Part shown: positions 14,401-33,512 of the stretch, one piece after another
How the letters are laid out: every line of letters starts with the position of its first letter
How positions within the stretch are numbered: position 1 is the stretch's first letter
NCBI GenBank assembly: GCA_041661765.1
Contig: JBAZTV010000002.1
Location: forward strand, 139,130 to 203,129
Reading direction: 5' to 3'
From: Candidatus Shapirobacteria bacterium
GTDB taxonomy: Bacteria > Patescibacteriota > Microgenomatia > UBA12405
Length of the DNA stretch: 64,000 nt
The notes under the pieces: model-generated
Database searches by the model: none
Told to the model about the DNA's origin: nothing
What the model saw: only the letters and a program-made list of their open reading frames with translations
Program-made: the position numbers and the translations under genes

Positions 14401-15992
14401 TTTGGAGTTAAAGTGAAACGACATTTATAGGTTCCATTGGAATAACTTACTAATGATTGTCTATTGCCATTGATATTACTAAAATCGCTTAACCAAAAAG
14501 TAGTTTGATTATCGGCTAAGGTTAGAGTACCTAAATTAGTTTCACTGTTATCATTATTAATTTTTGTACCAGTAATTACGTAATCTTTTAAATTAATGTC
14601 ATCAGGAAAATCAAGAGTTACTTGAGTGTCGACTAAATATTTACTGTCAAGACCAGTTAAATTACCAAAAGTTCCTGTAGTAGTAATGGATCCAGGTGAA
14701 CCGGCGGCAAATGAATAATTGGCTTTATCATTAGTGAAGCCAATATTGGTGTCGATACCATTAATATTTAACTCAGTACCTGGGCTGAGTAGATACCAAT
14801 CATTTGGATTAGTGGTAAATTTATCACTTTCTGCCCCGACTAATTGAGAAGAAATATTCAGACTCTTAGCTGACATACCATCAGGTAATTTAAATTTAAT
14901 AGTGTAAGTTAAAGTTCCATAATTTCGGCCAACAAACATACTGTAATTCATTGATTGTCGACCAAAACCAAACAAATCACTAAATTGACTAATCCAAAAA
15001 CTACTTTGATCGGCAGGTAAAGTATAAGAGCCCATACTTTGGTAATTAGTTGTGCCTTTAACTTCACCAGTCATAGGAATACTGCCAGTGACACCTGTAG
15101 GTCGATTAAAAGTAATTAAAGTATCAAGTTTATATTTAGGATCAATATTAGAAAAATTTCCCAAATTTAAACTGATATAAAGAGTAACATCGGAACCGCT
15201 GGTGGTAGTTATACTAGAAATGCTAGTTGATCTGCCGGGATTTGTATTGCTTTGAGCAAAAATCACTGAAGAATTGGGCATTATTTGATCACTAGTAGGG
15301 ATAAAGATAGTAAAATGATTTAAATTTTTAATAGAAATCGAGGTATCTGTTTTTACAATGGCATTTTCTACTTTTTGAGCAGAATCAATTTTTGAAATTT
15401 CTTCGGCAAATTTTACACTAATATTTTCACCTCTTGATGATACTGGAATTGGCAAAGAAAGATTGTAAGTAAAAGAACCATCTGCCATATCCGAGGTAAT
15501 ACTATAAACTTTTTCTGACAAGGACTCTGTTTGCTCTATTTGTTCTTTAGTAAGAGTTATTTCTTCAATTTTTATATTACCTGCAGGACTAGGAAGCTTG
15601 GTAAAAGTTAATTTTATTTCATTATTTTGAGGAGCAATATATTCTTTATTTAATTCTACTTTTTCAAATGTCCATGGTGAAGGAATATTGGTTGGGGTTG
15701 GGGTTGATTGAATCGTTGGTGTTACCTCGATAGTTGAGGTTATAGTTGGAATTGCAGTCGGTTCAATAGTTGGTATAACTGTTGGTTCTAATAGTTCTGA
15801 TGTTGATGTTGATGTTGGAATTGCAGTTGGTTCAGTAATTTGAACAATTTCAGTGGGAGTGGGGATAGTTTCTTCGGCATAAACTGGTTGAGCAATAAAT
15901 AAAAATGGGGTGAAAGAATTCAATAAAAGAGAGATATTTGCGAGAATGGCAATAAATTTTTTTGCGGATTTTGTTTTAATCATAAAGGTCAA
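8454..15992 (-). CDS. giant secreted surface/adhesin-like repeat protein (2512 aa)
   Basis: The signal peptide is MTFMIKTKSAKKFIAILANISLLLNSFTPFLFIAQPVYA. A Thr/Pro-rich N-terminal linker follows. There are at least 7 copies of a module of about 155 aa with GLDSKYxVDTxVTL, NLKDY, DNQTxFWLSDF and GAExxNFxNxxNWY motifs. Two MBG-like segments (KTYGDFDF, KTYGDTDP) and Ig-like segments are present. A poly-Ser/Asn tract is followed by an FN3-like domain near the C-terminus. No LPXTG motif. Confidence 0.8.
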   Translation of the reverse strand: MTFMIKTKSAKKFIAILANISLLLNSFTPFLFIAQPVYAEETIPTPTEIVQITEPTAIPTSTSTSELLEPTVIPTIEPTAIPTITSTIEVTPTIQSTPTPTNIPSPWTFEKVELNKEYIAPQNNEIKLTFTKLPSPAGNIKIEEITLTKEQIEQTESLSEKVYSITSDMADGSFTYNLSLPIPVSSRGENISVKFAEEISKIDSAQKVENAIVKTDTSISIKNLNHFTIFIPTSDQIMPNSSVIFAQSNTNPGRSTSISSITTTSGSDVTLYISLNLGNFSNIDPKYKLDTLITFNRPTGVTGSIPMTGEVKGTTNYQSMGSYTLPADQSSFWISQFSDLFGFGRQSMNYSMFVGRNYGTLTYTIKFKLPDGMSAKSLNISSQLVGAESDKFTTNPNDWYLLSPGTELNINGIDTNIGFTNDKANYSFAAGSPGSITTTGTFGNLTGLDSKYLVDTQVTLDFPDDINLKDYVITGTKINNDNSETNLGTLTLADNQTTFWLSDFSNINGNRQSLVSYSNGTYKCRFTLTPKSDLVGKTIGVSAKIISAESTNFDNSTNWFTSSNTINSLVNIAGFTISLDKTNYITAPNQITTIESTIENGDFSNLDSKYKIDTKVTLIPPQGINLKDLHVDVTCLNSQQQEISIGDVTLTDNQTVVWLSDFTKVARPSLQNYANKNYSCKFTFVPPSSLSNKIISLSTQAVGAEEGNFNNPADWYMVSNTATSSVNIIGITSTITSLEPTISSNSQAIFTNTVNFSDYTGLDSKYKSDLKIDLNAGTNLAGLQIDGYIVNDNIETPIGNITLGQNQTSLWLINDLMQQIRPSLVNHSNENINYRFKINLTTLTGKTLNITNQVVVAEDDNKFNNSTDWFTSSNESSISIKIINPTINFQESSYNTVTGQQTSIDGNVAFGNLTGLDTKYKVDTQVTLDFPDDINLKDYVITGTKINNDNSETNLGTLTLADNQTTFWLSNFSNINGNRQSLVSYSNGTYKCRFTLTPKTELAGKSINVSAKLVGAESGNFDNQNNWYLSSNATTTSINMIENMSGSIVITGDTKFGTTLMVNPTLTNSGTPTYQWKRNDINIDGATASTYTVGLADIGTIITVTATAEVGVGTGSITSTATEVITKADGPVAPPAPILVSKTTTSVTLTANVLNQFSEDGVNWQDSEIFTELNLNHQYTFFTRIKATETTNESVASVGVNITTNKLDQNIFFNTLENKTYGDFDFNVSTIATASSRLLVSFTAFGGCNVSNNMIHINKAGSCTITAHQTGDDNYNAAPDISQSFIINKKNLIISAQNSNKTYGDTDPILTASYSGFINDDDATSLDTLVNLTRTTGENVNNYIITASNAASTNYFIFFEPGTFTINAKPITVTADVQTKERGTSDSTLTYTNSPLVIGDTLSGSLTRVIGEEVGAYLITQGSLNAGTNYVINFIENNLTIIDTITPTLSFYTVSGTNINITYSEEVNTDINILDDHGVKVRDLGSTSITNSLNISWDGKNNSNQIVADGIYTIQVIGTDLAGHTVTDTSKTITVDTTSPIITLIGDSVININIGSTYIDAGAIAFDNYDNDLKVIITGTVDTKNVGSYVIYYDAVDSSNNTAIQVIRTINVVDTKPQISFGEANYVTAVNQPIIISSSINFGDSTGFSSEYKVDVKISFQSDVNLKGLVINGFVNMGNGATTTFIPIVLNDNQITLWLKDFILQDRPSLVSRSNKNYTAYFYISAPANLAGKSIQVSSVAVVAKDEDFNNPNNWYNSSNIANVNLKIIGSTISFVNNQTNYSITPNSLQTIDSIIGFSDFSGLDSKYLVDTKVDFSPPVGINLKDYIITAIKINNDDTQTVLGTLTLGDNQTSFWLSDFTNIDRRSLVNYSNGTYKVRFIFTPKTNLAGKSMNISAQLIGAEDGNFDNPNNWYVSSNIITANINIIDNIAPIITINDYNHNPTNQDITVTATTNEGSLNTNSHIFTQNGTFDFIATDSVGNVTTETVTISNIDKSPPSIPSASIISGTYATSQTITLSSNGSSIIKYSNSVKLDNCNSGTIYTAPFLIDHSQIISVIACDLLGNMSSNIFSYNITQSIENTKPLVSDQGQLTMSNEIKLDNKSSLDLTSGINTVSGNKVTVDGFEVNLNNYNLGDLSAGVNLTEVKNVGDKSIKVEKAVTLQSSNNESIITLTNNSLNNIKVEIPNSTTILGPLNWNGKIEPPKSISNSGNAPSGFSVNNTAIEVGSPSVILLFDKPISIILNNVTGDVAYRPAGSNNWTRISQKCGGSYDNPNNPIFPGECYISNGINTKIFTYHFTTFAGLTKNSASSSSNNSSSSSSSNNSSSSSSSNNSSSSCSSSVCNDSKPESAPVLISARVTGFNEVTLTWKPAKGSVTYYLVAYGNKPGQMIYGNPNVGGRDTLSYTVKGLSIKNRYYFKVRAGNGCTPGDFSNEVSVVVTKGGSYVNQAVGFYPNVLGASTVNKRIKKPLNSNLIIPESTPKGVTPTEIQKQSDNSNKLFDYIKKIFSKFFF
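8989..9068. repeat. 27-bp tandem repeat, about 2.9 units
   Basis: gatgaattatttgaagaagatgaacta is repeated head-to-tail. On the minus strand it encodes the SSSNNSSSS low-complexity tract of the giant protein. Confidence 0.8.
13021..13270. repeat. intragenic direct repeat, copy 1 (about 250 bp, near-identical to 14408-14680)
   Basis: Runs of more than 200 bp are identical with only a few mismatches. It encodes VDTQVTLDFPDDINLKDYVITGTKINNDNSETNLGTLTLADNQTTFWLS... Confidence 0.8.
14408..14680. repeat. intragenic direct repeat, copy 2
   Basis: The same sequence as 13021-13270, 1387 bp downstream. This corresponds to a protein super-repeat of about 462 aa. Confidence 0.8.
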
Positions 15993-18458: not shown

Positions 18459-18500
18459 TCCCCTCCTTTCGTCAAAGGAGGGGATTAAGGGGTGGATTTA
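18459..18500. repeat. GC-rich palindromic mini-element, intergenic copy A
   Basis: TCCCCTCCTTT-CGTC-AAAGGAGGGGA is a perfect 11-bp stem (18459-18484). The tail TTAAGGGGTGGATTTA follows and overlaps the metK stop codon. It belongs to the same family as the copies at 20905, 21518 and 22895. Confidence 0.6.
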
Positions 18501-20748: not shown

Positions 20749-21996
20749 ATGAAAATACTATTAATAAGTCATATTTTTCCTCCCGCCATCGATGGCGGTT
20801 CAAAAGTCATTTATAAACTTGGCCAATATTTTGAATCCCAAAATCATCAAACTCTTTATTTAAGTTCCAATTGTTCCAGCACTGACGACTTCATCAAAAA
20901 AAGTCCTGCCCTGTCAAGGGAAGGATTTAGGAAGGGTTTTATAAAACTGCCCACATATCACCATCTTCGCCGACCCTTAAAATTTCTAAATTTATTTTTA
21001 AAACAAGATTTATTAAAAGTTTTTCAAAAAGGCCCGATTTTTAAAATTTTTCCGTTTCTAAAAGCCACTTATCAAATTTTAAAATTCAAACCCGATTTAA
21101 TTATCGCCGGTCCACTTCCAACAACTATTATTCTATATGCTGTTTTTTTCAAAAAAATAACTAATTCCAAACTTCTAATCAATGCTTCCTTCCACCCCAC
21201 CGACCAAGACTTTCAACAAAAACCACTAATTAATACCTTAAAAAAGGCAGATTTTTTGTGGACTCTTACTCAATCAGAAACTGATTATTTTACAAAAAAT
21301 TTTAATATCGACCCAAAAAAAATAATTCTCGCCGGCAACGGTGTCGATTATAATTTTTTAAAAAAATCAAAAATTCCCCGTCTTGTCTCGGCCAAAAGCC
21401 GATCCGCCTCTGGCGGAAAGGGAGGCTTAGGAAGCTTTAACATCTTATTCATCGGTTCTCTTGCCGCCCATAAACGCGTCGACATTTTAATTAAGTCTTT
21501 TTCAGATATTTTAGCGTCCCGCCCTGTCAAGGGAGGGATTGAGGGAGGGTTTAAACTTACTATCGCCGGCCAAAAAACCCTCTTCTATTCTCAAATCGAA
21601 AAACTAATCAATTCCCTTGACCCAAAATTAAAATCTAAAATCAATTTTATTTTTAATTTTAATCAAAAAGATTTGGCTAAAATAATTGATAATTGCTCTG
21701 TTTTAGTTTTACCCTCAGTTCAGGAAAGTTTTGGTTTAGTTATTGTCGAAGCCTGGGCTCGGCAAAAACCAGTAATTTGTGCCGATATTCCAGCATTAAA
21801 AGAATTAGTCCAAAATTCAAATGGGGGATTATTGTTTAAAACCAATGATCAATCAGATTTAACAAAAAAAATTCAAGAAATCATAGACAATCCAAAAAAA
21901 TCAGAACAAATGGGGAAAAATGGTTACAATTATGTTAAAAACAATTATACTTGGAATAATGTAGGAAATAAAATATGCCAAAAAATATTATGCTGA
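20749..21996 (+). CDS. glycosyltransferase family 4 carrying three in-frame mini-element insertions
   Basis: The N-terminus is MKILLISHIFPPAIDGGSKV and the C-terminal region is VLPSVQESFGLVIVEAWA...G. GC-rich inserts encode PALSREGFRKGFIKL, SAKSRSASGGKGGLGSF and ASRPVKGGIEGGFKL. Confidence 0.75.
   Translation: MKILLISHIFPPAIDGGSKVIYKLGQYFESQNHQTLYLSSNCSSTDDFIKKSPALSREGFRKGFIKLPTYHHLRRPLKFLNLFLKQDLLKVFQKGPIFKIFPFLKATYQILKFKPDLIIAGPLPTTIILYAVFFKKITNSKLLINASFHPTDQDFQQKPLINTLKKADFLWTLTQSETDYFTKNFNIDPKKIILAGNGVDYNFLKKSKIPRLVSAKSRSASGGKGGLGSFNILFIGSLAAHKRVDILIKSFSDILASRPVKGGIEGGFKLTIAGQKTLFYSQIEKLINSLDPKLKSKINFIFNFNQKDLAKIIDNCSVLVLPSVQESFGLVIVEAWARQKPVICADIPALKELVQNSNGGLLFKTNDQSDLTKKIQEIIDNPKKSEQMGKNGYNYVKNNYTWNNVGNKICQKILC
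20905..20941. repeat. palindromic mini-element copy B (intragenic, in-frame)
   Basis: CCTGCCCT-GTCA-AGGGAAGG hairpin with one mismatch, plus the tail ATTTAGGAAGGGTTTTA. Confidence 0.6.
21405..21441. repeat. related mini-element copy E (sub-family with CCGCC-TCT-GGCGG hairpin)
   Basis: CCGCCTCTGGCGG, then AAAGGGAGGCTTAGGAAGCTTTAA. The tail is homologous to the copy B tail. It encodes SASGGKGGLGSF. Confidence 0.45.
21518..21555. repeat. palindromic mini-element copy C (intragenic, in-frame)
   Basis: CCCGCCCT-GTCA-AGGGAGGG, plus the tail ATTGAGGGAGGGTTTAAA. Confidence 0.6.
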
Positions 21997-22433
21997 TAAT
22001 TACTCCTGTTTTAATAATAATTGCCGGAATTTTAATTTGGCGATTATTTTTTTATTTACCACCAGCTAACTCTATTAAGATCAAAATTGCCAACATTAAT
22101 TACAATATTGAATTAGCCACAACCATCGCCCAAAAAACAAAAGGGTTATCTGAACGAAATATTCTCTGTAAAAATTGCGGTATGCTTTTTACTTTTAGTT
22201 TTGAAACTAATTTGCCTTTTTGGATGAAAAACACTCTAATTCCTCTCGATATGATTTGGCTCGATAAAAATGGAAAAGTAGTTGATATTCAAACCGCCGT
22301 TGAAATTAATTCAAATAAAATTTACCAAAACCAAATTCCCGCCCAATATGTCCTTGAACTAAATGCTAATGATTCACAAAAAATAGGCCTAAAAATAGGT
22401 GACATTATTGATCTTTCAAAGATAAATGACTAA
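21975..22433 (+). CDS. DUF192-domain protein
   Basis: GLSERNILCKNCGMLFTFSFETNLPFWMKNTLIPLDMIWLDKNGKVV matches the DUF192/COG1430 core. There is an N-terminal TM anchor. Confidence 0.55.
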   Translation: MPKNIMLIITPVLIIIAGILIWRLFFYLPPANSIKIKIANINYNIELATTIAQKTKGLSERNILCKNCGMLFTFSFETNLPFWMKNTLIPLDMIWLDKNGKVVDIQTAVEINSNKIYQNQIPAQYVLELNANDSQKIGLKIGDIIDLSKIND

Positions 22434-23412
22434 TTTTTCTATTATTATTCCAAATTACAATGGTGCTTCATTTTTAACTAACTGTCTTAATTCTTTAAAA
22501 CAAGCAATAGATAATTGTCCTAATTCTGAATTCGAAATAATTCTAATCGATAACAACTCAAAAGATGATAGCCTTAAAATTTTTGAAATTATAATTCCTA
22601 AAAATTTTAATTATCGAATATTACTAAACTCAAAAAATTATGGATTCGCCAGTGCTGTTAATCAAGGAATTGAAAAAGCCAAATATGAATATGTAGTCTT
22701 ATTAAATAATGACCTCACCATGGAACCAAATTGGTTTCAGTTAATTTCTAAAACAATTAAAAAAAATAAAAATCCAAAAATCGCCACATTTTTCGGTACT
22801 GTTCTAAATAAAGAAGGCACAAAATTTGAATCCCAAGGTCTAAAATTTTTTTATTCCGGCAAATGTCAAAACATTTCCAACAGGGACAAATTCACCCCCT
22901 CCTTGTCAAAGGAGGGGGTTGGGGGTGGATTAGTTTGGGGTGCTTCCGCTGCTTTTATTGTCTACAATAAAAAAATATTAAAACAAATTGGTCTTTTTGA
23001 TTCTGATTTTTTTGCTTATTTGGAAGATGTCGATTTATCCCTCCGTCTTCATAATTTAAATTATCAAACTTTTTATATTCCCAAAGCTATTTCTTATCAC
23101 TTCGGTGGTGGCACCAGTAAAACTATGAAGAATATTCGCAGTCGATTATCCTATCGAAATTGGTTCTTCATAATTATAAAGAACTATTCTTCAAAAGAAT
23201 TTTTTACCAATTTTTCAAATATTTTAATTGAAAGATGTCACAACTTATCATATTTCTTTAAAGAAACCATTTCTGTTTATAAATGGAAATCTATTATAAT
23301 TTTTCCGTTCGATTTTATAAAAACATCTCTTGAAATTTTCATTTTACTCCCCAAAATATTAAAAAAACGAAAAACAATTCAAAAATTGATAAAATTAAAC
23401 AACTTAATATGA
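22426..23412 (+). CDS. glycosyltransferase family 2
   Basis: MTNFSIIIPNYNGASFLTNCLNSL...ILIDNNSKDDS...NNDL is a GT-A fold DxD region. The gene also carries an in-frame mini-element (PSLSKEGVGGGLVW). Confidence 0.75.
   Translation: MTNFSIIIPNYNGASFLTNCLNSLKQAIDNCPNSEFEIILIDNNSKDDSLKIFEIIIPKNFNYRILLNSKNYGFASAVNQGIEKAKYEYVVLLNNDLTMEPNWFQLISKTIKKNKNPKIATFFGTVLNKEGTKFESQGLKFFYSGKCQNISNRDKFTPSLSKEGVGGGLVWGASAAFIVYNKKILKQIGLFDSDFFAYLEDVDLSLRLHNLNYQTFYIPKAISYHFGGGTSKTMKNIRSRLSYRNWFFIIIKNYSSKEFFTNFSNILIERCHNLSYFFKETISVYKWKSIIIFPFDFIKTSLEIFILLPKILKKRKTIQKLIKLNNLI
22895..22936. repeat. palindromic mini-element copy D (intragenic, in-frame)
   Basis: CCCCCTCCTT-GTCA-AAGGAGGGGG is a perfect 10-bp stem. 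The tail is TTGGGGGTGGATTAGTTT. Compare copy A, whose tail is TTAAGGGGTGGATTTA. Confidence 0.65.
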
Positions 23413-24548
23413 TTATCGGCATTGATATCTCATCCATTCCTTATAAAACTGGCGTTAGTAATTACACTCTCAATCTAATTAGAAATTTAGTTAAACTCGA
23501 TAAGATCAACACTTACAAACTTTTTTATTCATCTCTTCGACTTCCACTTCCAAATGAAATACTTGCAATTAAAAATACTCATCCAAACGTTAAAGTCTAT
23601 CAGTTCAAACTACCACCAACCTTCCTACAAATTTTATGGAATCGATTCCATATTTTCCCAATTGAAATTTTTATTGGCAAATGTAACATTTTCCATACAT
23701 CAGACTGGACTCAACCACCAACCATAAAAGCCAAAACAATTACTACTGTTCACGACCTTACTCCTTTCTTACACCCTGAATGGCACCATCCAAAAGTTAT
23801 TACTGCTCATAAAAATAAAATGAATTTAGCCGCCAAAAAATGTTTTAAATTTATCTGTGTCTCCCAAAGTACTAAAACCGATTTATTAAAAATTTTTCCT
23901 AAAATTAAATCAGAGAAAATTGAAGTTATTTATGAAGCCGCCGAAGAAAAATATGGAAAATTTTTAAAATTAACAAAGGAAGTTCAAATAAAGAAAAAAG
24001 AAAACATTAAAAAACAATATGATTTAGATAAATTCATTTTAGCCCAAGGCACTCGTGAACCACGAAAAAATCTTAAAAGATTAATAGAAGCCTTCATTAT
24101 TTTCAAAAAAAATAATCCCAATTGTAAAGTCAATTTAGCTATTGCTGGAAAATATGGCTGGGGAGAAGATGTTGATGGCGCCAAAAACCCATCTGTAAAA
24201 ATTCTTGGATTTATCCCCGAAAAAGATATGGTTGCTCTCCATGCCAGTGCTATTTGTTTAGCTTATCCATCTCTTTATGAAGGTTTTGGCTTACCATTGG
24301 TCAAATCTTTAAAAGTTGGAACTCCGATTATTACCAGTAATATTTCTTCTATGCCCGAAGTCGGAGGTAATGCCGCTCTTTATGTCAATCCAAATTCAAT
24401 ACCAGACTTGACCAAAGCTATCACCAAAATAATTAAATCATCTGTTCTTAGAAAGAAATTAACAGCTAATGGTCTAATACAAGCCAAAAAATTTGATTGG
24501 TTGAAAACTGCTGAACAAACTTTATCTATTTACAAAAGTTTATGTTAA
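23409..24548 (+). CDS. glycosyltransferase family 4
   Basis: 379 aa. The C-terminus has the EX7E-type motif region (YPSLYEGFGLPLVKSLKVGTPIITSNISSMPEVGG). Confidence 0.75.
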   Translation: MIIGIDISSIPYKTGVSNYTLNLIRNLVKLDKINTYKLFYSSLRLPLPNEILAIKNTHPNVKVYQFKLPPTFLQILWNRFHIFPIEIFIGKCNIFHTSDWTQPPTIKAKTITTVHDLTPFLHPEWHHPKVITAHKNKMNLAAKKCFKFICVSQSTKTDLLKIFPKIKSEKIEVIYEAAEEKYGKFLKLTKEVQIKKKENIKKQYDLDKFILAQGTREPRKNLKRLIEAFIIFKKNNPNCKVNLAIAGKYGWGEDVDGAKNPSVKILGFIPEKDMVALHASAICLAYPSLYEGFGLPLVKSLKVGTPIITSNISSMPEVGGNAALYVNPNSIPDLTKAITKIIKSSVLRKKLTANGLIQAKKFDWLKTAEQTLSIYKSLC

Positions 24549-25666
24549 TCGGAATTGATGGTAACGAAGCCAATATTAAAAATCGTGTCGGTGTCGGTCA
24601 GTATGCCTTTAACCTTCTAAAAAATATTTATTTAATTGACCAAAAAAATCAATATATTATTTACTTAAAAGACCAACCGTTAGAAGATCTTCCTCAAGAA
24701 AGGCAAAATTGGCATTATAAAATTTTTGGTCCTCAAAAGCTTTGGACTAAATTTGCTCTCCCAATTCATCTTTTTACTCAAAAAGAAAAATTGGATATTT
24801 TTTATTCTCCCGGTCACTATTCTCCTCAATTTGCCCCTTGTCCCACAATTCCAACCATTCACGATCTTGGTTATCTTCAATTTCAAAATCAATTCACTAA
24901 AAAAGATCTTTATCAATTAATTAATTGGACTCGTCAATCCATTAAAAAATCCGCTCATATAATTACAGTTTCTGATTTTTCTAAAACTGAAATTGAAAAA
25001 ACTTATCAAATTGATCCGCAAAAAATAACTATTGCCTACAATGGTGTTGATGAGCCTTTAAAAGTTGATTTAAAAACACAACAAAAAATCTTATTATCCT
25101 ACTATTTACAACATAAAAATTATTATTTATATTTAGGTACACTAAAACCAAACAAAAACATTCCATTTCTAATTCGATCCTTTTCTCAATTTTTAAAAAC
25201 AACTGATCAGAAAACTAAACTAGTAATTGCTGGTAAAAAAGGATGGCTTTTTGATGAAATTTTTATTACCGTTCAAAAAGAGGGGATGGAGTCTAATATT
25301 GTCTTTACTGACTTTGTCGATGAATCTCAAAAAACAACTCTTTATAAACATGCCAAAGCTTTAATTTTACCTAGCACTTATGAAGGTTTTGGTATTCCCG
25401 CCATTGAAGCTATGAAATCAAACACACCCGTAATTTCCAGTAATATTGACCCACTAAAAGAAGTTATTCAAAATAACGGTTTTTATTTTGACCCAACCAA
25501 TCAAGAAGAATTGGTTCATCAGTTAATTAATTTTGAAAGAATTAATCCCAAAGAAATCAAAAAAATAACTGATCAAGCCAAAATTCGTGCTGATTTTTTC
25601 ACTTGGACCAACACCGCCAAATCCGTAATTTCCGTTTTTGAAAAATTTAAAAATGTAGGGGTGTGA
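24542..25666 (+). CDS. glycosyltransferase family 4
   Basis: 374 aa. LPSTYEGFGIPAIEAMKSNTPVISSNI. Confidence 0.75.
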   Translation: MLIGIDGNEANIKNRVGVGQYAFNLLKNIYLIDQKNQYIIYLKDQPLEDLPQERQNWHYKIFGPQKLWTKFALPIHLFTQKEKLDIFYSPGHYSPQFAPCPTIPTIHDLGYLQFQNQFTKKDLYQLINWTRQSIKKSAHIITVSDFSKTEIEKTYQIDPQKITIAYNGVDEPLKVDLKTQQKILLSYYLQHKNYYLYLGTLKPNKNIPFLIRSFSQFLKTTDQKTKLVIAGKKGWLFDEIFITVQKEGMESNIVFTDFVDESQKTTLYKHAKALILPSTYEGFGIPAIEAMKSNTPVISSNIDPLKEVIQNNGFYFDPTNQEELVHQLINFERINPKEIKKITDQAKIRADFFTWTNTAKSVISVFEKFKNVGV

Positions 25667-25710
25667 TTTATCACGCCCAAAAATATGGGTTTGATTAATC
25701 AAACCCCTAC
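25655..25710. promoter_or_regulatory. paired GC-rich palindromes at a gene junction
   Basis: Imperfect GGGGTGTGAT-tt-ATCACGCCC (25657-25679) overlaps the TGA stop of the upstream gene. Perfect 20-mer GGGTTTGATTAATCAAACCC (25687-25706) overlaps the ATG of the downstream gene. Confidence 0.4.
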
Positions 25711-26320
25711 AATATATAATGTACATATGAAAGACCGCACTGGCAAGAATCTAAATTTTCAAGAAATCTCTCAAAAAATTATTAATCGCTTTAAAACTAT
25801 TTGCCTCGAATTTTGGTTGATGATTTTAAGATTTGTCGGCTACATTCCTATTCACACTATCAGAAAAATTTTTTACATCGCCTCTGGAGTTGATATACCT
25901 TTAAATTCAACTATTCACATCGGTGCTAATTTTTTCAACCCTTCAAATATTAAAATCGGCCACGATACCATCATTGGTGATCATTGTTTTCTTGATGGCC
26001 GTGCTAAATTAACCATCGGCAATCATGTTGGCATTGCCAGTCAAGTTTTAATTTATAACGATGAACACAATATTCATTCCAATAATTATGAAAATTCTTT
26101 TGGTCCAGTTGAAATTGGAGATTACGTTTTCATTGGTCCTCGCGCCATAATTTTACCTGATGTAAAAATTGGTAAAGGTGCTGTTGTTGCCGCCGGTGCT
26201 GTTGTTACTAAAAATATCCCCGATTTTGAAATATGGGGCGGAATTCCAGCTCAAAAAATAAGTGATCGAAAAAATAAAAACCCAAATTATAAACTTGGTC
26301 GTGCTATGTTATTCCAATAA
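25685..26320 (+). CDS. hexapeptide-repeat sugar O-acetyltransferase (WcaF/LbH family)
   Basis: Left-handed beta-helix repeats (IGHDTIIGDHCFLDGRAKLTIGNHVGIASQVLIY...IGPRAIILPDVKIGKGAVVAAGAVV). The start may instead be the internal ATG at 25727. Confidence 0.7.
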   Translation: MGLINQTPTIYNVHMKDRTGKNLNFQEISQKIINRFKTICLEFWLMILRFVGYIPIHTIRKIFYIASGVDIPLNSTIHIGANFFNPSNIKIGHDTIIGDHCFLDGRAKLTIGNHVGIASQVLIYNDEHNIHSNNYENSFGPVEIGDYVFIGPRAIILPDVKIGKGAVVAAGAVVTKNIPDFEIWGGIPAQKISDRKNKNPNYKLGRAMLFQ

Positions 26321-26321
26321 T

Positions 26322-26867
26322 ATGATTAAAAAAATATTAATTGCCTTATTTTGTATTTTTAATATTTTTGCCATTGTTTATCTAATCAGTCCAACTCCAA
26401 CTCTTCCTGATCTTGTTAACAGTGTTAAATCAGACGAACCAGGCGACACTGTTCAATTAAAAAATGTTTCCGCCTACTACACCAACATGACTCGAACTGA
26501 AGTCATGAATTTTTACAAAGCTTACTATAGTGGCCCATTTAGAATCATTCTTAATCATCCACCCGAAAAATCGAAAGAAATAATTAAAGACACTATTCAA
26601 AGTTATTATTTTGAAGAATTTGTTCTACCTTTCAAAGAATCTATTTTTATTAATGGCTTCGAATGGGAAAATGATGTTTTCACCAAACCAGAAAATCGAT
26701 TAAAGAATAAATTGATTTTCAAGGATAAAGAATACAAAGCCAAAATTACCATCAAAGCCATTCCTACTTCAACACCAAATCGTATCATTGCTTTTTTATT
26801 CACCGAAGCCGCTGTCATTTTTACTCTCTACGCTTACAAATCTTTTTTAAAAAAGAAACATGATTAA
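26322..26867 (+). CDS. hypothetical membrane-anchored protein
   Basis: Internal ATG immediately after the upstream TAA. It has an N-terminal TM helix (MIKKILIALFCIFNIFAIVYLI) and no known domain. Confidence 0.35.
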   Translation: MIKKILIALFCIFNIFAIVYLISPTPTLPDLVNSVKSDEPGDTVQLKNVSAYYTNMTRTEVMNFYKAYYSGPFRIILNHPPEKSKEIIKDTIQSYYFEEFVLPFKESIFINGFEWENDVFTKPENRLKNKLIFKDKEYKAKITIKAIPTSTPNRIIAFLFTEAAVIFTLYAYKSFLKKKHD

Positions 26868-27786
26868 GCCTGTTCTTTCGATAATTATTGTTTCCTACAA
26901 CACTAGTGAAATAACTATTAATTGTCTTAAATCAATTTTTAAAGACAAAGGTCTTAAAGAAATTCCTTTTGAAATTATTGTTGTCGATAACAATTCTAAA
27001 GATGATTCGGTTATTCAAATCAAAAAAAACAAAGAAATAAAATTAATCTCCAATAAATTTAATGGGGGATTTGGTAAAGCTAATAATCAGGGTTTAAAAA
27101 TTGCCGAAGGTAATTATATTTTATTTTTAAATTCCGACACCATCATTCTTCACTCCGCCATCAGTCAAACTTTAAATTGGCTTTGCTCCCACCCCGAAGC
27201 TTCTGTTTGCACTGCTCAATTATTGAACAAAGACAAAACAATCCAAGCTTCTGGCGGTTTTTTTCCAAATTTACTAAACATAAAAACTTGGTGTTTCAAT
27301 TTAGATGATCTTCCTTTTGTTAATAAAATTATCAAGCCTCTTCATCCTCACACACCAAATTTTTACACTCACGACAAATTTTATTTAAAAGATCACCAAC
27401 AAGATTGGGTTACTGGTGCTTTTATGATGGTTCGATCATCTCATTTAAAACCAACCCATGGTTTTGATGAAAATTATTTTATGTACGGTGAAGAAATTGA
27501 ACTTTCTTATCGAATCAAAAAAAATAATCCCCAATCTCAAACTTGGTATTTAATTGGCCCTCAAATTATTCATCTTGGCGGTGCTTCAGCTCAAAACAAA
27601 ATCGATCCAATCATCAACGAGTATCGTGGTATTCTCGCTTTTTTTAAAAAACATAAAAGCCAATGGCAATACAATATAGTTAAATATCTAATTAAATTTA
27701 ATGCCTTCAATCGTGGTGTTATATACTCTATTAGAGGTAATAAAAATACCGCCTCACTTTATTTTCAAACATGTTCAAAAATCTAA
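26860..27786 (+). CDS. glycosyltransferase family 2
   Basis: MIKPVLSIIIVSYNTSEITINCL...VVDNNSKDDS...LNSDT. Confidence 0.75.
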   Translation: MIKPVLSIIIVSYNTSEITINCLKSIFKDKGLKEIPFEIIVVDNNSKDDSVIQIKKNKEIKLISNKFNGGFGKANNQGLKIAEGNYILFLNSDTIILHSAISQTLNWLCSHPEASVCTAQLLNKDKTIQASGGFFPNLLNIKTWCFNLDDLPFVNKIIKPLHPHTPNFYTHDKFYLKDHQQDWVTGAFMMVRSSHLKPTHGFDENYFMYGEEIELSYRIKKNNPQSQTWYLIGPQIIHLGGASAQNKIDPIINEYRGILAFFKKHKSQWQYNIVKYLIKFNAFNRGVIYSIRGNKNTASLYFQTCSKI

Positions 27787-29177
27787 ATATTTTTCGACCA
27801 ATAATCGCCATTCTCATTTTATTTATTCCTCTCTATCCCAAGTTTCCCTTAACTAGCGTCGATGGCACATATGTTGCTATTCGTCTCGACGATTTGGTGA
27901 TAGCCATTGCCATTTTAATTTGGGGCATTCATCAAATTACTCATAAATTTCCGGTTTTCAAAATAAAAATAACCAAATTATTTTTAGCCTATTTTATGGC
28001 TATTATTGCCAGTTTTGTCACTGCATTTTTAGTTTATCAAACCGATTCCACTAGTCTTCTACTTCTCCATTTGGCTCGCCGTTTTGAATACATTTCTTTA
28101 TTTTTTATTGCCATAAACAGTGTTAAATCAAAACAAGATTTAAAATTTAGTTATATTTTTCTTTTAATAGCCACCACTCTAGTAAGTATTTATGGCTATG
28201 GTCAAAAATATTTTCAATTCCCAGTAATTTCCACTATGAACTCCGAATTTTCCAAAGGCCAATTACTTCAAATGAGTACTTGGACTCGTATTAATTCTAC
28301 TTTTGCTGGTCACTATGACTTAGCCGCTTTTTTAAGTGTTGCTCTAATAATCATTGCCACAGTTTTTATTTTGAATAAAAATAAATGGATTAAATTATCT
28401 AGTTTGATCGTTTGGATTACTGCTTATCCAATTCTAACTTTCACTGCTTCTAGAGTTTCAATTTTTGCCTTTCTTATCGGAATTTGTTTTACTCTCTTTG
28501 CTTTAAGAAAATATTTTTGGATTATTCCTTTTTTTGTTTTAATTGGCTTTAGTATTTTTAATTCAGAAGATTTAAATCAAAGATTATTAGCTACTATTCC
28601 CGCTCTAAAAAATCAAATAACTAAAACTAAAACTACAATTACTATAACTCCTACCGCCACTCCAACTTCAATTCCAATTGCAGCCGTTATCACTAAAACG
28701 CCAATTATTAAAACGATATCACCAACTCCAACCATCGTTCACCACATTACCACTGAAAATTATCCTACCGTTGATGCTGATGCTGGCGTCGCCCGATCCG
28801 GTGAAATTCGTTTTAATGTTGAATGGCCACGAGCCATTAGAGCATTTAATAAAAACCCAATTATTGGCACTGGTCTTGGTTCTATTACTCTCGCTACCGA
28901 TAATGATTATCTTCGATTGTTAGGCGAAAGTGGACTTTTAGGATTTATTTCTTTCATGGCAATCCTACTATTTTTCACAATCAAAACGATACCTTTAATT
29001 TTCAAAAAGAATCAATTACTTAATAATCAAATATCTATTATCTTTCTTGGTTGTCTTTTAACCACTCTAATCAACGCTGTCTTTATTGATGTGTTTGAAG
29101 CCTCAAAAACTGCCTATCTTTTCTGGATAATGATGGGGTTTTATTATCAATTACTCAATTTTAAAGATGAAAAATAA
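27771..29177 (+). CDS. O-antigen ligase / Wzy-family membrane protein with an inserted Thr/Pro-rich linker
   Basis: Multi-TM protein. The C-terminal NDYLRLLGESGLLGFISFMAIL is the Wzy_C signature. The insert TKTKTTITITPTATPTSIPIAAVITKTPIIKTISPTPTIV lies at 28612-28737. Confidence 0.5.
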   Translation: MFKNLNIFRPIIAILILFIPLYPKFPLTSVDGTYVAIRLDDLVIAIAILIWGIHQITHKFPVFKIKITKLFLAYFMAIIASFVTAFLVYQTDSTSLLLLHLARRFEYISLFFIAINSVKSKQDLKFSYIFLLIATTLVSIYGYGQKYFQFPVISTMNSEFSKGQLLQMSTWTRINSTFAGHYDLAAFLSVALIIIATVFILNKNKWIKLSSLIVWITAYPILTFTASRVSIFAFLIGICFTLFALRKYFWIIPFFVLIGFSIFNSEDLNQRLLATIPALKNQITKTKTTITITPTATPTSIPIAAVITKTPIIKTISPTPTIVHHITTENYPTVDADAGVARSGEIRFNVEWPRAIRAFNKNPIIGTGLGSITLATDNDYLRLLGESGLLGFISFMAILLFFTIKTIPLIFKKNQLLNNQISIIFLGCLLTTLINAVFIDVFEASKTAYLFWIMMGFYYQLLNFKDEK

Positions 29178-30378
29178 AAGAAATATTTTAATGATCACCC
29201 CTTATATTCCGCGCCTTTCCCAGTCCGGTGGCCAAAACAGCTCTTTTTATTCAATAAAATATTTGTCTCCAGAAAATAATATTACCTTAATTTGTCTTAG
29301 TCCAGATGAAGAAGGATTAGAAGACATTAAACAATATTGTTCTAAGGTTATTGTTGTCAAACGTGGTAAAACCTGGGATCCCAAAAAAGTTCTCATGACT
29401 GGATTTAGTCCATATCCTTTTTTAGTCATGAAACACATCAATAAAAAATTTCGCGAAGCCATCCAACATGAACTAGATACTAATTCTTTCGATCTTATCC
29501 ACTGTGATTGTTTTTATCCAATGCCCAATATTCCTAAAACAAAAATCCCAATTGTTTTAGTCGATCTTACGGTTGAATATGAAGTCTATAAACATTATGT
29601 TGAAACTGTTACTAGTTGGAAAAAAATTTTAAAACCTCTTCTCTGGATTGACGTTTTAAAGCTTAAATATTGGGAAACTTATTATTGGAAAAACACTCAC
29701 ACTGTTGTTGCTTTTGCCGAAGAAGACCAACAATTAATTTCCAAAATCACCGGCCGCAATGATATTAAACTTTTTCAAAATGGTGTTGATAATAAATTTT
29801 TTGAATCAAAGGCTAAAACTGAAAAAAGCAAATTTCCTTCAATTTTATTCGGTGTTTCCAATATGAAATGGATGCAAAATCGCGAATCTGTAGAAATGAT
29901 AATGAAAGATTCTTGGCCAAAAATTAAAAAAGCAATACCTGAATGTAAATTTTACATAATTGGTCGCCATGCCCCGGATTATTACAATCATTATCGCTCT
30001 GAAGACATTATTGTCGAAGAAGCTGATTTTGATGGTCAGCCACAAGATCCTATGTTTTATTATCAATATTGCTGGGCTCTGGTCGCACCAATGGGCAGTG
30101 GTGGTGGCACCCGCAATAAATTCCTCGAAGCCATGGCCTGTCGACTGCCAATTATTACCACTCCGGAAGGTATGGGTGGAATTAAAATTGAAAATTTTAA
30201 ACAATCTATTATTTGTGACTACGATCAAATCGCTAAAAATACTATTGATTTATTGAAGGATAGTAAAAAAAGAATTCTGATGGGGGAGGAAGCTAATAAA
30301 CTTATTCGCAGTAAATATTCCTATCAAAGCAGTGTCAATGGTCTAAACCAAATTTATCAAGAGATTACCAAAAAATAA
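29167..30378 (+). CDS. glycosyltransferase family 4
   Basis: 403 aa. VAPMGSGGGTRNKFLEAMACRLPIITTPEGMGG. Confidence 0.7.
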   Translation: MKNKRNILMITPYIPRLSQSGGQNSSFYSIKYLSPENNITLICLSPDEEGLEDIKQYCSKVIVVKRGKTWDPKKVLMTGFSPYPFLVMKHINKKFREAIQHELDTNSFDLIHCDCFYPMPNIPKTKIPIVLVDLTVEYEVYKHYVETVTSWKKILKPLLWIDVLKLKYWETYYWKNTHTVVAFAEEDQQLISKITGRNDIKLFQNGVDNKFFESKAKTEKSKFPSILFGVSNMKWMQNRESVEMIMKDSWPKIKKAIPECKFYIIGRHAPDYYNHYRSEDIIVEEADFDGQPQDPMFYYQYCWALVAPMGSGGGTRNKFLEAMACRLPIITTPEGMGGIKIENFKQSIICDYDQIAKNTIDLLKDSKKRILMGEEANKLIRSKYSYQSSVNGLNQIYQEITKK

Positions 30379-30379
30379 A

Positions 30380-31291
30380 ATGGATTTATCAGTCATAATT
30401 TTAAATTACAACTCTGCCGATTATCTAAAAAAATGTCTCGAAAGCATTACTAAATCAGATATTGATAATTATAAATATGAGGTAATTATTGTTGACAATA
30501 ATTCCACCGACGACAGCATAAAATTATCAAAGTCTATCCATTCACCTAATTTTAAATATCTCGAATTAAAAACTAATCAGGGTTTTGCTCACGGCAATAA
30601 TCAGGGTTTAAAAGAAATAAACCCAAAAATCAGACTCGTTCTTTTTCTAAACCCCGACACTATTGTTCAAAAAGACACTTTCAAAAAAATGATCGAATTT
30701 TTTAATCAAAACAAAAATATCGACGCTGCCACTTGCCAAATCAATTTAGCTCTCACCGGGAAAATGCAACCAGAATGCCATCGTGGTTTTCCTACCCCTT
30801 GGAATTCTCTGTGTTATTTTACAGGTCTGTCAAAATTATTTCCCCATTCAAAAATATTCTCCGGCTATTTTATGGGCAATTTAGACAAAACTGTTCCACA
30901 TAAAATTGATGCCTGTGTCGGCGCTTTTCTAATGGTCAAAAAAGAAGTCGGCGACAAAATCAAATGGTGGAATGAAAAATATTTTTTCTATGGTGAAGAT
31001 CTTGATTTTTGTTATCAATTAAAACAAAATAATTTTAATTTATATTTTAATCCAAATTGTAAAATAACCCATTTTCAGGGAGTTTCTTCTGGTTTAATTA
31101 ACAAAAGCAAACATCTTTCCAAAGCCTCACGACAAACTAAAATCAAAGTTGCTAAAGCCAGCACTCAAGCCATGAGAATTTTTTATCAAGAAAATTTATT
31201 TTCCCATTATTCAATTTTCACCAAATTTTTAGTCATGTCCGGCATTCAATTACTAGAACTCAAAAGAGTCTTCAAAGCCAAATATTTATGA
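30380..31291 (+). CDS. glycosyltransferase family 2
   Basis: MDLSVIILNYNSADYLKKCLESI...IIVDNNSTDDS. Confidence 0.75.
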   Translation: MDLSVIILNYNSADYLKKCLESITKSDIDNYKYEVIIVDNNSTDDSIKLSKSIHSPNFKYLELKTNQGFAHGNNQGLKEINPKIRLVLFLNPDTIVQKDTFKKMIEFFNQNKNIDAATCQINLALTGKMQPECHRGFPTPWNSLCYFTGLSKLFPHSKIFSGYFMGNLDKTVPHKIDACVGAFLMVKKEVGDKIKWWNEKYFFYGEDLDFCYQLKQNNFNLYFNPNCKITHFQGVSSGLINKSKHLSKASRQTKIKVAKASTQAMRIFYQENLFSHYSIFTKFLVMSGIQLLELKRVFKAKYL

Positions 31292-32412
31292 AACAACATA
31301 TTGTTATCGATGCTCGTCTCTACGGATCTAAACACACTGGCATTGGCCGTTACACTAAAAATCTTCTCAAAGCCTTAACTGAATTGTCCGATTTTAAAAA
31401 ATATAAATTCACCTTAATTATTTACACAAATTTAGAAAACGAAATCAAAAAAGATTTAGGCGACAATTTTAATTATGTCACCACTAATATCCAACATTAC
31501 TCTCTAAATGAACAGCTTTTTTTACCTTTTTTAATTTATAAATTAAATCCCGATTTGGTCCACTTTACCCATTTTAATAAACCGATTCTTTATTTCAAAA
31601 AATCAGTCGTCACCATTCATGATTTAATCAAACATTTTTCTAAAGGCAAAGACACCACCACTAAAAACCAATTTTTATACCAAATAAAATATTTTTTTTA
31701 TCTAATTTTAATTCGCATCACTATTACTCAAAATCAAATAATTGTCCCCAGTAACTACTGGCGTGATTTTTTAATCAAAAAATATCATTTAAAAGATTTT
31801 CGAATCATTACTACTTATGAAGCTGTCGATCCAACTTTCTTAACCAATACTAAAAACGAAATCATTATTAAAAACCCCAAAAACTATTTGGTTTATACCG
31901 GCAATCTTTATCCTCATAAAAACATTATTATTGTTTTAAAAGCCCTTCAAAAACTACCAGACATCAAATTAAAAATTATTTGTGCTCGTGATTTTTTTAG
32001 CGAAAAATTATCAAAACAAATTAATCATCTAAAACTTAAAAAACAAGTTGAATTTCTCGGTTATCTCGACGACAAACAATTTAAAGAAGTTTATAAACAA
32101 GCCTTAGCTTTAATTCATCCGTCTTTAATGGAAGGTTTCAGCCTTACTGGTCTTGAAGCCATGGCTCTAAATTGCCCTGTAATTTCTTCAAATGCAAGCT
32201 GTCTCCCTGAAATTTATGGCGATTCTGTTCTTTATTTCGACCCAAATAATTCCGATGAATTAGTCCAAAAAATTAATCAATTAAAAAACAATTTGGAGCT
32301 ACGTCAAAAATTAATTAATCTCGGACATCAGCAAATCAAAAAATATTCTTGGAATAAAACCGCCAAAAAAACCATGGCCGTTTATGAAAAATTATTATGC
32401 GAAACGAAGTGA
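31288..32412 (+). CDS. glycosyltransferase family 4
   Basis: 374 aa. HPSLMEGFSLTGLEAMALNCPVISSNASCLPEIYG. Confidence 0.75.
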   Translation: MKQHIVIDARLYGSKHTGIGRYTKNLLKALTELSDFKKYKFTLIIYTNLENEIKKDLGDNFNYVTTNIQHYSLNEQLFLPFLIYKLNPDLVHFTHFNKPILYFKKSVVTIHDLIKHFSKGKDTTTKNQFLYQIKYFFYLILIRITITQNQIIVPSNYWRDFLIKKYHLKDFRIITTYEAVDPTFLTNTKNEIIIKNPKNYLVYTGNLYPHKNIIIVLKALQKLPDIKLKIICARDFFSEKLSKQINHLKLKKQVEFLGYLDDKQFKEVYKQALALIHPSLMEGFSLTGLEAMALNCPVISSNASCLPEIYGDSVLYFDPNNSDELVQKINQLKNNLELRQKLINLGHQQIKKYSWNKTAKKTMAVYEKLLCETK

Positions 32413-33512
32413 AGTCCGCCTCTGGTGGAAAAAAGCCAAAAATTGCTCTGTTCTATGATTGGTTAAATCAATGGGGTGGAGCCGAAAAAGTTTTACTTGA
32501 CTTAATTAAACTTTATCCTGAAGCTCCAATTTATACACTTGTCCACGATCCAAAAAAAACTAAATGGCTTCCAAAAAATACTAAAATTATTGCCTCATTT
32601 ATAAACAATCTTCCATTTTCAAAAAACAATCCAATTTTTTACACTCCATTATATTCAATTGCTCTCGAACAATTTGATTTTTCTCAATACGACATCATTA
32701 TTTCTACTACCCAAGTCTGCGGTCACTGTTTTATAACTCAACCAAAAACTCTTTACGTTTGCTATTTCCATAATATTAATCGTTACGTTTATCAAACTCC
32801 GCCCCAATTCCAAATTTTAAAACCGCTTCTAAATCAATATAAAAAAATAGATTTTGTTTATGGTCAACGACCTAACTATTTGTTTTGTAATTCAAAAACA
32901 GTTCAAAAGAGAATTAAAAATGCCTACAAAAGAGAAGCAAAAATAATTTATCCTGGCATCGACACTTCTTTTTTTATTCCTTCAAAAATAAATCCAACTG
33001 AAAAATATTTTTTAATTGTTTCCCGTCTAGTTTCCCATAAAAAAATCGATCTAGCCATTAAAGCCTGTCATAGATTGAATCAAAAATTATACATTGTCGG
33101 CACCGGCCGCGATAAAAATAAATTAATTAATCTAATCGATTCCATAAATGATTCAAATATAAAATTATTAGGAAAGGTTGATAATAATAAATTATTAAAT
33201 CTTTATCAAAATTGTCAGGCTTTAATTTGCCCTCAGTTAGAAGATTTTGGTCTAACTCCACTCGAAGCCCAAGCTTGTGGTAAACCAATTATTGCCTATA
33301 ATAAGGGAGGTTTAACTGAAACTATAAATTTAAAAACCGGAATATTTTTTAAAAATCAAACCGTAAAAAGTATTATTCATGCCATCAAAAAATTTAATCC
33401 CAAAGATTTTTCGCCATCTGATTGTATTTCTAATGCTGCCAAATTTTCTATCCAAAATTTTATGCTAAACTTTAAAAAAGAAATTAACCTCTTATGGCAG
33501 AATCATCAATAA
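32397..33512 (+). CDS. glycosyltransferase family 4
   Basis: 371 aa. The N-terminus KSASGGKKPKIALFYDWLNQWGGAEKVLLDL includes a mini-element-like sequence (32415-32437). Confidence 0.7.
   Translation: MRNEVKSASGGKKPKIALFYDWLNQWGGAEKVLLDLIKLYPEAPIYTLVHDPKKTKWLPKNTKIIASFINNLPFSKNNPIFYTPLYSIALEQFDFSQYDIIISTTQVCGHCFITQPKTLYVCYFHNINRYVYQTPPQFQILKPLLNQYKKIDFVYGQRPNYLFCNSKTVQKRIKNAYKREAKIIYPGIDTSFFIPSKINPTEKYFLIVSRLVSHKKIDLAIKACHRLNQKLYIVGTGRDKNKLINLIDSINDSNIKLLGKVDNNKLLNLYQNCQALICPQLEDFGLTPLEAQACGKPIIAYNKGGLTETINLKTGIFFKNQTVKSIIHAIKKFNPKDFSPSDCISNAAKFSIQNFMLNFKKEINLLWQNHQ

Follow-up and report, generated by a model that had tools for sequence, protein, structure and literature searches.

The DNA considered here (hereafter the window) is a 64,000-nucleotide (nt) stretch of contig JBAZTV010000002.1 (positions 139,130 to 203,129) from a Candidatus Shapirobacteria bacterium. 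Its GC content is about 30%, and it carries a glycosyltransferase cluster whose encoded proteins match metagenome-assembled genomes (MAGs) of Candidatus Shapirobacteria. Two genes of this cluster, both encoding glycosyltransferases of family GT4 (20749-21996 and 32397-33512), contain the same short GC-rich hairpin in the same reading frame. This hairpin belongs to a 30-nt element that is found, translated or intergenic, at many places in related genomes, and the anatomy, distribution and probable origin of that element are described below. Comparison loci are designated L and orthologous proteins P.

The sequence common to both genes, TCCGCCTCTGGYGGAAA, is 17 nt long and lies at 21403-21419 and at 32415-32431, with 16 of 17 positions identical. 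An initial annotation had described a two-copy GC hairpin translated as SASGGK in two GT4 genes, and that description stands with respect to position, frame, fold and chance expectation; the second site (TCCGCCTCTGGTGGAAAAAAGCC at 32415-32437) had been placed exactly, whilst the first, given as starting at 21405, was off by one base, since the match CCGCCTCTGGCGG occupies 21404-21416 and is followed by AAAGGGAGGCTTAGGAAGCTTTAA. At both sites the codons tCC GCC TCT GGY GGA AAr are read as S-A-S-G-G-K, within ...SAKSRSASGGKGGLGSF... at the first site and MRNEVKSASGGKKPKIALF... at the second, and the peptides predicted across the two inserts are MRNEVKSASGGK and SRSASGGKGGLGSF. Folding confirmed a 6-bp stem with a 3-nt loop, the copy at 32415 having one G.T (G.U) wobble pair. 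The hairpin pattern occurs twice in the window when one mismatch is allowed, against 0.02 occurrences expected. A test that is safe a posteriori was also applied, in which all pairs of GC-rich 17-mers that differ at no more than a single position were counted: the 2189 GC-rich 17-mers of the window contain only two repeat families, namely the pair at 21403/32415 and a pair at 20903/21516 that belongs to another element, termed sub-family 1, and any such pair arose in just 0.5% of 200 trials in which the window was shuffled in 60-nt blocks. A scan of the whole window at Rfam gathering thresholds returned one tRNA elsewhere and no family at the elements, and E-value scans of 20850-21650 and 32300-32520 returned sub-threshold noise alone.

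At the second site, the hairpin forms the 3' half of a 30-nt insertion (copy 2; 32400-32429, plus strand) composed of CGAAA-CGAAG-TGAAG and TCCGCCTCTGGTGGA, which is read R-N-E-V-K-S-A-S-G-G as codons 2-11 of the GT4 gene 32397-33512. The shared 15-nt hairpin module, recognized by pattern match and fold and containing the wobble pair, occupies 32415-32429 (plus strand), and the stem begins at +19 from the start codon. Copy 2 matches the covariance model of the family with 54.5 bits, and two assemblies made independently, L001 and L002, carry it without any difference. Relative to L031 and L003, the window has a net gain of 30 nt between identical flanks: the element-free junction reads ...gaaaaattattATGAC(C/A)AA(G/A)CC..., and that of the window ...gaaaaattattATG, CGAAACGAAGTGAAGTCCGCCTCTGGTGGA and AAAAAGCC... 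in direct succession. The closest orthologues of the 32397 product (76-81% identical) start with MTKPK[IV]ALF and are exactly 10 codons shorter, which confirms the earlier proposal that the N-terminal MRNEVKSASGG is derived from the element. An N-terminus of this type is patchily distributed, being present in about 15 of 120 orthologues, where alignment showed it to be encoded by the same nucleotides and not by unrelated ones; in the 32397 product the peptide precedes the first beta-strand (KIALFYDW).

It had also been proposed that the element donated the start codon of this gene, and here the comparison gave a different answer. Element-free orthologues show ...gaaaaattattATGAc... at the place of the start codon, and an ancestral 4-nt ATGA stop/start overlap is present in L031, L003, L028, L022 and L005; the codon that was originally second, ACC or ACA, stands directly 3' of the insert in L097 and L004. 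The ATG at 32397-32399 (plus strand) is therefore ancestral, in the position of the ATGA overlap, with at most its G contributed by the element, which sits between codons 1 and 2. What the element did donate is a stop: the insertion abolished the original TGA of the upstream GT4 gene (31288-32412), which now ends at a TGA within the element (32410-32412, plus strand) and gains four codons (C-E-T-K). The same stop/start arrangement is found independently at another junction, from a GT4 to a GT2 gene (L047, 6951-6991). Among the orthologues of the 32397 product, P0045, P0046, P0063, P0090 and P0115 have gene-caller starts at MKSASGG, MKSAFGG or MESASGG, apparently from a GTG inside the element. 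Given such starts, start donation is not an absurd idea for some relatives, and start-codon annotation near these elements is therefore unreliable.

The copy in GT4 20749-21996 (copy 1; 21388-21417, plus strand) is a 30-nt double-hairpin element composed of TCGGCCAAAAGCCGA and TCCGCCTCTGGCGGA and read S-A-K-S-R-S-A-S-G-G. When folded, this segment forms a pair of neighbouring hairpins, both perfect (-16.1 kcal/mol, z = -3.5), the second of which is the shared 15-nt module (21403-21417, plus strand), with its 6-bp stem and TCT loop; this module matches the covariance model with 20 bits, and its stem covaries across the family. Copy 1 is flanked by the two halves of a sub-family-1 element, both on the plus strand and both identified by an nhmmer family search and by comparison with L083: the 5' half (CCCCGTCTTGTC) at 21376-21387 and the 3' half (AAGGGAGGCTTAGGAAGCTTT) at 21418-21438, so that the host element reads CCCCGTCTTGTC, then the insert, then AAAGAAGGGG.... 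At the orthologous site, L083 carries the sub-family-1 element uninterrupted, with CCCCGTCTTGTC contiguous with AAAGAAGGGGTTAGGGGAAGATTT (CCCCGTCTTGTCAAAGAAGGGGTTAGGGGAAGATTT, that is, PRLVKEGVRGRF), whereas in L082 and in the window the same element is split between GTC and AAA by exactly 30 nt, TCGGCCAAA(A/G)GCCGATCCGCCTCTGGCGGA; L084 is without any element at this linker site. The segment 21388-21417 is therefore an insertion nested in an older element. This nesting explains the homology between the tail of the first site and a sub-family-1 copy, which the initial annotation had taken to link the two sub-families: the similarity to 20916-20936 is real, but the tail is that of the host element. 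Judged from sequence comparison, copy 1 is best described as a composite, a 30-nt element inside a complete sub-family-1 element, and not as a link of descent.

The linker between the two domains of this GT4 is hypervariable among its orthologues (P0121-P0240) and rich in recurring peptides of GC-rich elements, which include PRLVKEGVRGRF, RPVKGGVRGRF and PCPVKGRVGEGF. In an AlphaFold model of the protein (mean predicted local distance difference test score, pLDDT, 87.6), pLDDT drops below 50 nowhere but at residues 56-59, 213-227 and 261-265, which coincide exactly with the three patches derived from elements; all of them fall between secondary-structure elements. The first and third correspond to sub-family-1 copies at 20903-20939 (SPALSREGFRKGF) and 21516-21552 (SRPVKGGIEGGF), both on the plus strand and both recovered by the nhmmer search. 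Sub-family-1 copies (20903-20939, 21516-21552 and 22895-22931) are built of a GTCA-loop hairpin and then a tail formed by a run of G, and GGGAGGGATTGAGGGAGGG within them fits a G-quadruplex motif. Some 20 copies occur in related loci, in a single orientation throughout. An intergenic copy, CCCCTCCTTTCGTCAAAGGAGGGGATTAAGGGGTGGATTTA, lies on the plus strand at 18460-18500 of the window between two genes that are both on the minus strand, a hint that orientation may be tied to the strand of the chromosome and not to transcription. In L086 (6561-6606, minus strand) a sub-family-1 copy contains a different nested mini-hairpin, GCCCGAAGGGC; nesting of hairpin modules therefore recurs.

Beyond the window, a covariance model built from 11 copies was used to search 1.34 Mb of loci from GTDB genomes, a sample that is biased towards glycosyltransferase clusters and makes any copy density provisional. 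The search recovered 13 full copies, all on the gene strand, and hairpin-only matches at 21403 of the window and in L041, the latter intergenic and of ambiguous gene context. Copies away from the junction orthologous to that of copy 2 include one at the N-terminus of the upstream GT4 (L013, 9374), one between the domains of the same protein, in its linker (L043, 9957), and two in a loop of a GT2 (L018, 5057; L026, 5093), where a different frame of the DNA gives AKQSEVRPWR or AKRSEVRLWR. The GT2 loop copies are clean 30-nt insertions relative to L020, L013 and L007; pairs of filled and empty sites that differ by exactly 30 nt have been found at three non-homologous places, namely the linker of GT4 20749, the start of GT4 32397 and this loop. 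A metagenome scan for the exact 21-mer GYGAAGTCCGCCTCTGGYGGA returned 41 stretches. Among its hosts with long open reading frames (ORFs) on contigs of 30-48% GC are Dus, transketolase, ribosomal protein L1, GT4s, a class-II aminoacyl-tRNA synthetase (aaRS)-like protein and one unassigned protein; L1 is represented by four different genes, with up to three hairpin modules in tandem. All three sense frames are used, giving KSASGG, SEVRLWR or RSPPLAE, and some copies lie in intergenic DNA, although most of those sampled are inside ORFs. In one ribosomal-protein operon (L122), 8.7 kb long, the element is present four times, at the ends of proteins and in a UppP-like ORF. The sites in the window, suggested earlier to be members of an interspersed, in-frame mini-element family, are thus not its sole members, as the search for the motif found the element at many unrelated sites.

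Several observations accompany these searches. Terminal extensions of ribosomal proteins L1, L17 and L13 (L122, L096, L099, L102, L105) are partly built of hairpin elements, and in L102 three hairpin modules stand in tandem at the N-terminus of L1. Possibly fortuitous or unrelated matches in high-GC metagenome contigs (L100, L107, L108, L116-L118 and L121) were left out of the evidence, and the one match to GAAGTCCGCCTCTGGYGGA in a scan of viral contigs, in a GC-rich context, was taken as chance. Many of the GTDB representatives (L003-L056) are titled 'uncultured Gammaproteobacteria bacterium' but are close Shapirobacteria orthologues of 30-40% GC, so that their titles are apparently wrong. 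No account of such elements in Patescibacteria, or the Candidate Phyla Radiation (CPR), was found in a literature search whose coverage lacked most subscription journals, so that their absence from the literature is unproven.

The unit of the family is 30 nt long and consists of two 15-nt modules, with a GC content of 51-65%. The 3' module is the hairpin TCCGCC-NNN-GGCGGA, whilst the 5' module is either a set of three CGAAG pentamers (the main type, to which copy 2 belongs) or a second hairpin, TCGGCC-AAAA-GCCGA (copy 1). Within the stem, 97.8% of cells are paired and three of the six pairs are changed on both sides, a result unmatched by any shuffle and obtained from a set in which most sequences had been picked by exact pattern, which limits variation. 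The compensatory variants include TCCGTC..GACGGA, CCCGCC..GGCGGG and TCCACC..GGTGGA, with G.U intermediates. As to the flanks, 24 of 30 copies have T at -1, mostly as ..TTG or ..ATG before the insert, an A-run follows at +1 to +4, and the copies often lie within (GAAAATT)n tracts. Neither a target duplication nor terminal inverted repeats were found in the flanks or in comparisons of filled and empty sites, and the two ends, CGAAG... and ...GGCGGA, do not form an inverted repeat. In ORFs of at least 150 residues on contigs below 50% GC, 13 copies are in sense and one in antisense orientation; the reverse complement of the element is free of stops in all frames, and disruption of ORFs therefore does not account for this bias.

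The AT-rich heptamers merit separate description. Tandem repeats (GAAAATT/GGAAATT)n, read ENCKLKI, GNWKLEI or EIRN*KL, occur in L024 (about 4570-4600), at the GT2 site in L012, L028, L054 and L020, and at junctions in L045, L026, L030, L023 and L076. They are found in protein loops and at stop/start junctions, make TTG starts and usually border a GC hairpin element, and they look like either a second, AT-rich repeat system or a preferred target of the hairpin element.

The explanation that we consider probable is that the window holds two copies of a GC-rich hairpin mini-element, modular and non-autonomous, and that this element spreads as DNA through these AT-rich genomes of Patescibacteria. 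The comparisons show a fixed 30-nt unit with a hairpin inserted in the DNA of non-homologous sites, together with its boundaries, its reading frames and its position in disordered segments; its translation is inferred from the intact ORFs, and its mobilization in trans is likewise inferred. The unit inserts without target duplication, the main type typically landing between ...A/T-T-G on its 5' side and an A-run on its 3' side, in many cases in (GAAAATT)n or directly behind a start codon. It would persist in genes because it adds exactly 10 codons, is free of stops in two or three sense frames and encodes short hydrophilic peptides (KSASGG, SEVRLWR, RSPPLAE), which come to lie in disordered loops, inter-domain linkers and termini. 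Copy 1 entered GT4 20749 at the linker between its domains, in the loop of a sub-family-1 element already present there, and copy 2 entered between codons 1 and 2 of GT4 32397 within the ATGA overlap, lengthening that protein by 10 residues and, through a TGA in its third frame, re-terminating the upstream GT4 after four extra codons. The element may be moved by an enzyme that recognizes hairpins in single-stranded DNA; our best guess, by analogy, is one of the HUH/RAYT or IS200/IS605 kind, because the copies keep to one strand, lack duplications and have a fixed left flank and a hairpin, features that recall the peel-and-paste chemistry of those systems.

Several points weigh against this explanation. 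No transposase, nuclease or other partner was found in the 64-kb window or in the 20-kb loci, and a tblastn search of 1.6 Mb with an IS200 TnpA query, which is a weak test, gave no match. A 97-residue ORF resembling a stand-alone GIY-YIG nuclease, located just downstream of back-to-back 15-nt hairpins (TCCGCCAGAGGCGGA TCCGCCTTAGGCGGA) in L113 (7100-7482), was considered as a partner and rejected, there being no second such ORF in 1.6 Mb. Filled and empty alleles were not seen within one population, so that current mobility is not demonstrated, and the nearest genomes with an empty site share only about 80% protein identity. The copy density, about one per 90 kb, is modest and comes from a glycosyltransferase-biased sample, the insertion register is ambiguous by 1-2 nt, and selection acting on RNA would be equally compatible with the strong bias to the sense strand and with the G.U intermediates.

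That last point leads to the best-surviving alternative, which is that the hairpin is a functional RNA signal, a site of cistron processing or stability or a modulator of initiation, kept by selection and not selfish DNA. The 13:1 sense bias in long ORFs, the common strand of all 13 GTDB copies and the compensatory stem changes speak for such a role, as does the fact that many copies are placed where two cistrons meet or immediately 3' of a start codon. Against it, copies also lie deep in genes (the GT2 loop, GT4 linkers, the aaRS-like gene and the UppP-like ORF) and even nested in another repeat, their presence is patchy among close orthologues, no Rfam family matches, and a constant distance from the ATG follows simply from a fixed element inserted after 'TG'. 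We regard this alternative as unlikely, although an RNA-level role may coexist with a mobile origin.

Less likely still, and in our view improbable, is a local origin of the hairpins by template switching or quasi-palindrome formation, followed by gene conversion among glycosyltransferase paralogues without transposition. The two copies of the window belong to a single gene cluster and both fall in GT4 genes, the elements are very small and devoid of terminal inverted repeats or target duplications, and 15-nt modules occur in tandem (L102) or back to back (L113), all of which would suit such a process. Conversion between paralogues cannot, however, yield near-identical 30-mers in unrelated genes (L1, Dus, transketolase, aaRS-like) and in differing frames, and the flanks of the copies are alike only in their A/T-rich target. 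The unrelated hosts and three frames therefore rule out conversion among glycosyltransferase paralogues, and with it a protein-level motif. Selection for SASGG(K) as a signal, modification or binding site might seem to explain the same peptide in two GT4 proteins and at the N-termini of some orthologues, but the reading was rejected, as identical DNA yields SEVRLWR or RSPPLAE in other genes and also occurs between genes, the nucleotides are conserved too, including synonymous stem-forming positions, and the segments are predicted to be disordered; we give it very little credence. That the likeness arose by chance between two runs of GC-rich codons, or through an error of assembly, is barely conceivable: the stretch common to the two sites of the window is just 17 nt, but the pattern counts and shuffles described above, the same sequence in independent assemblies (Logan, ENA, JGI and NCBI), and insertion lengths that are codon multiples conserved in relatives all speak against it.

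Comparison with known systems places the element near several of them. Rickettsia palindromic elements (RPEs) were reportedly described by Ogata et al. in 2000 as in-frame palindromic repeats. Like the element described here, they are palindromic repeats of a reduced, AT-rich bacterial genome, are inserted in frame in genes, are translated and tolerated at surface positions, and also occur between genes (RPEs are mentioned in PMC1779305); the 10-codon inserts in three frames correspond to this pattern of in-frame insertion. RPEs are, however, about 100-150 bp long, fall into families RPE-1 to RPE-8 and are specific to Rickettsia, whereas the unit here is 30 nt, modular (15 + 15) and strongly GC-rich, nests and often stands right behind start codons; this comparison is one of descriptions, not of sequences. 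Double-hairpin elements are also known from Allomyces mitochondria. Mitochondrial GC clusters, double-hairpin elements and other repetitive hairpin-forming elements (PMC4478555; PMC2800124) share with the present element their short GC-rich single or double hairpins in AT-rich genomes, their intergenic and coding locations, their nesting and clustering and their want of an encoded transposase, and copy 1 is literally a double hairpin. They differ in being organellar, of variable length and often not a multiple of three, some of them in Magnusiomyces being bypassed by ribosomes, whereas here a free bacterial genome carries inserts of a fixed 30 nt with open reading frames.

Repetitive extragenic palindromic (REP) sequences and REPINs, which are mobilized by RAYT transposases (PMC3733652; PMC3116915), are GC-rich imperfect palindromes of 20-40 nt with a conserved unpaired 5' tail; they are non-autonomous, cause no target duplication and have some intragenic copies, and a 15-nt hairpin in a 30-nt unit conforms to this size and type. 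Their unpaired GTAG/CGTC tag (PMC3733652) has no counterpart, the sequence 5' of the stem being GAAG (main type) or CCGA (copy 1) and that 3' of it an A-run. Instead of high copy number, extragenic location and inverted doublets, the present elements show a low density in the biased sample, a location mostly in ORFs and one orientation; no RAYT was seen in the window or the 20-kb loci, the aimed search being the weak tblastn test described above. Mycobacterial interspersed repetitive units (MIRUs), said to have been described by Supply et al. in 1997, are small repeats at intercistronic junctions that overlap the upstream stop and the downstream start, as do copy 2 and the insert at L047 6951; unlike the present element, they are tandem units of 40-100 bp confined to intergenic junctions and are not hairpins inside genes. 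A reading as a MITE, a transposable element of the miniature inverted-repeat type, was rejected, there being no terminal inverted repeats or target-site duplication, as was translational bypass of the kind known from T4 gene 60 and mitochondrial byps, since the frame used is open and matched take-off and landing codons are absent. For palindrome-associated elements derived from IS200/IS605, the hairpin, the lack of duplication, the usual ..TG left flank (with T at -1 in most copies) and the restriction to one strand would be compatible with membership, but no pair of left and right ends is present and no TnpA was found in the weak tblastn test. The element works like these known kinds without being a member, and defining features are lacking for REPs (the tag, and an extragenic location), MITEs (terminal inverted repeats and target duplication), RPEs (the size) and bypass inserts (a broken frame).

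Elsewhere in the window, on the minus strand at 8454-15992, lies a 2512-residue ORF with internal repeats of about 470 nt (families D1-D9), which probably encodes a large repetitive surface protein.

In-frame selfish palindromes have so far been a curiosity of Rickettsia and mitochondria, and the elements described here would be their compact, modular counterpart in the CPR. A bolder proposal, which we hold to be unlikely, is that the modules are active, coding-compatible mobile DNA throughout the Patescibacteria, moved by a strand-specific hairpin-binding enzyme with a preference for sites right behind start codons and for (GAAAATT)n, reshaping the ends and linkers of proteins as well as operon junctions, ribosomal proteins included, and co-opted as RNA hairpins that tune initiation or mRNA processing. 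For annotation, the elements account for unusual peptides of GC-rich origin, such as KSASGG, SEVRLWR, RSPPLAE and PVKGG..GF, for extended N-termini and for doubtful gene starts in MAGs, and they offer a defined sequence marker for insertion polymorphism and for seeking the enzyme behind such tiny elements. If the explanation favoured here is true, streamlined AT-rich genomes have been colonised by GC-rich hairpin DNA that lengthens proteins and redraws stop/start overlaps, and the linkers of cell-envelope glycosyltransferases, and even ribosomal proteins, would have been diversified by it.

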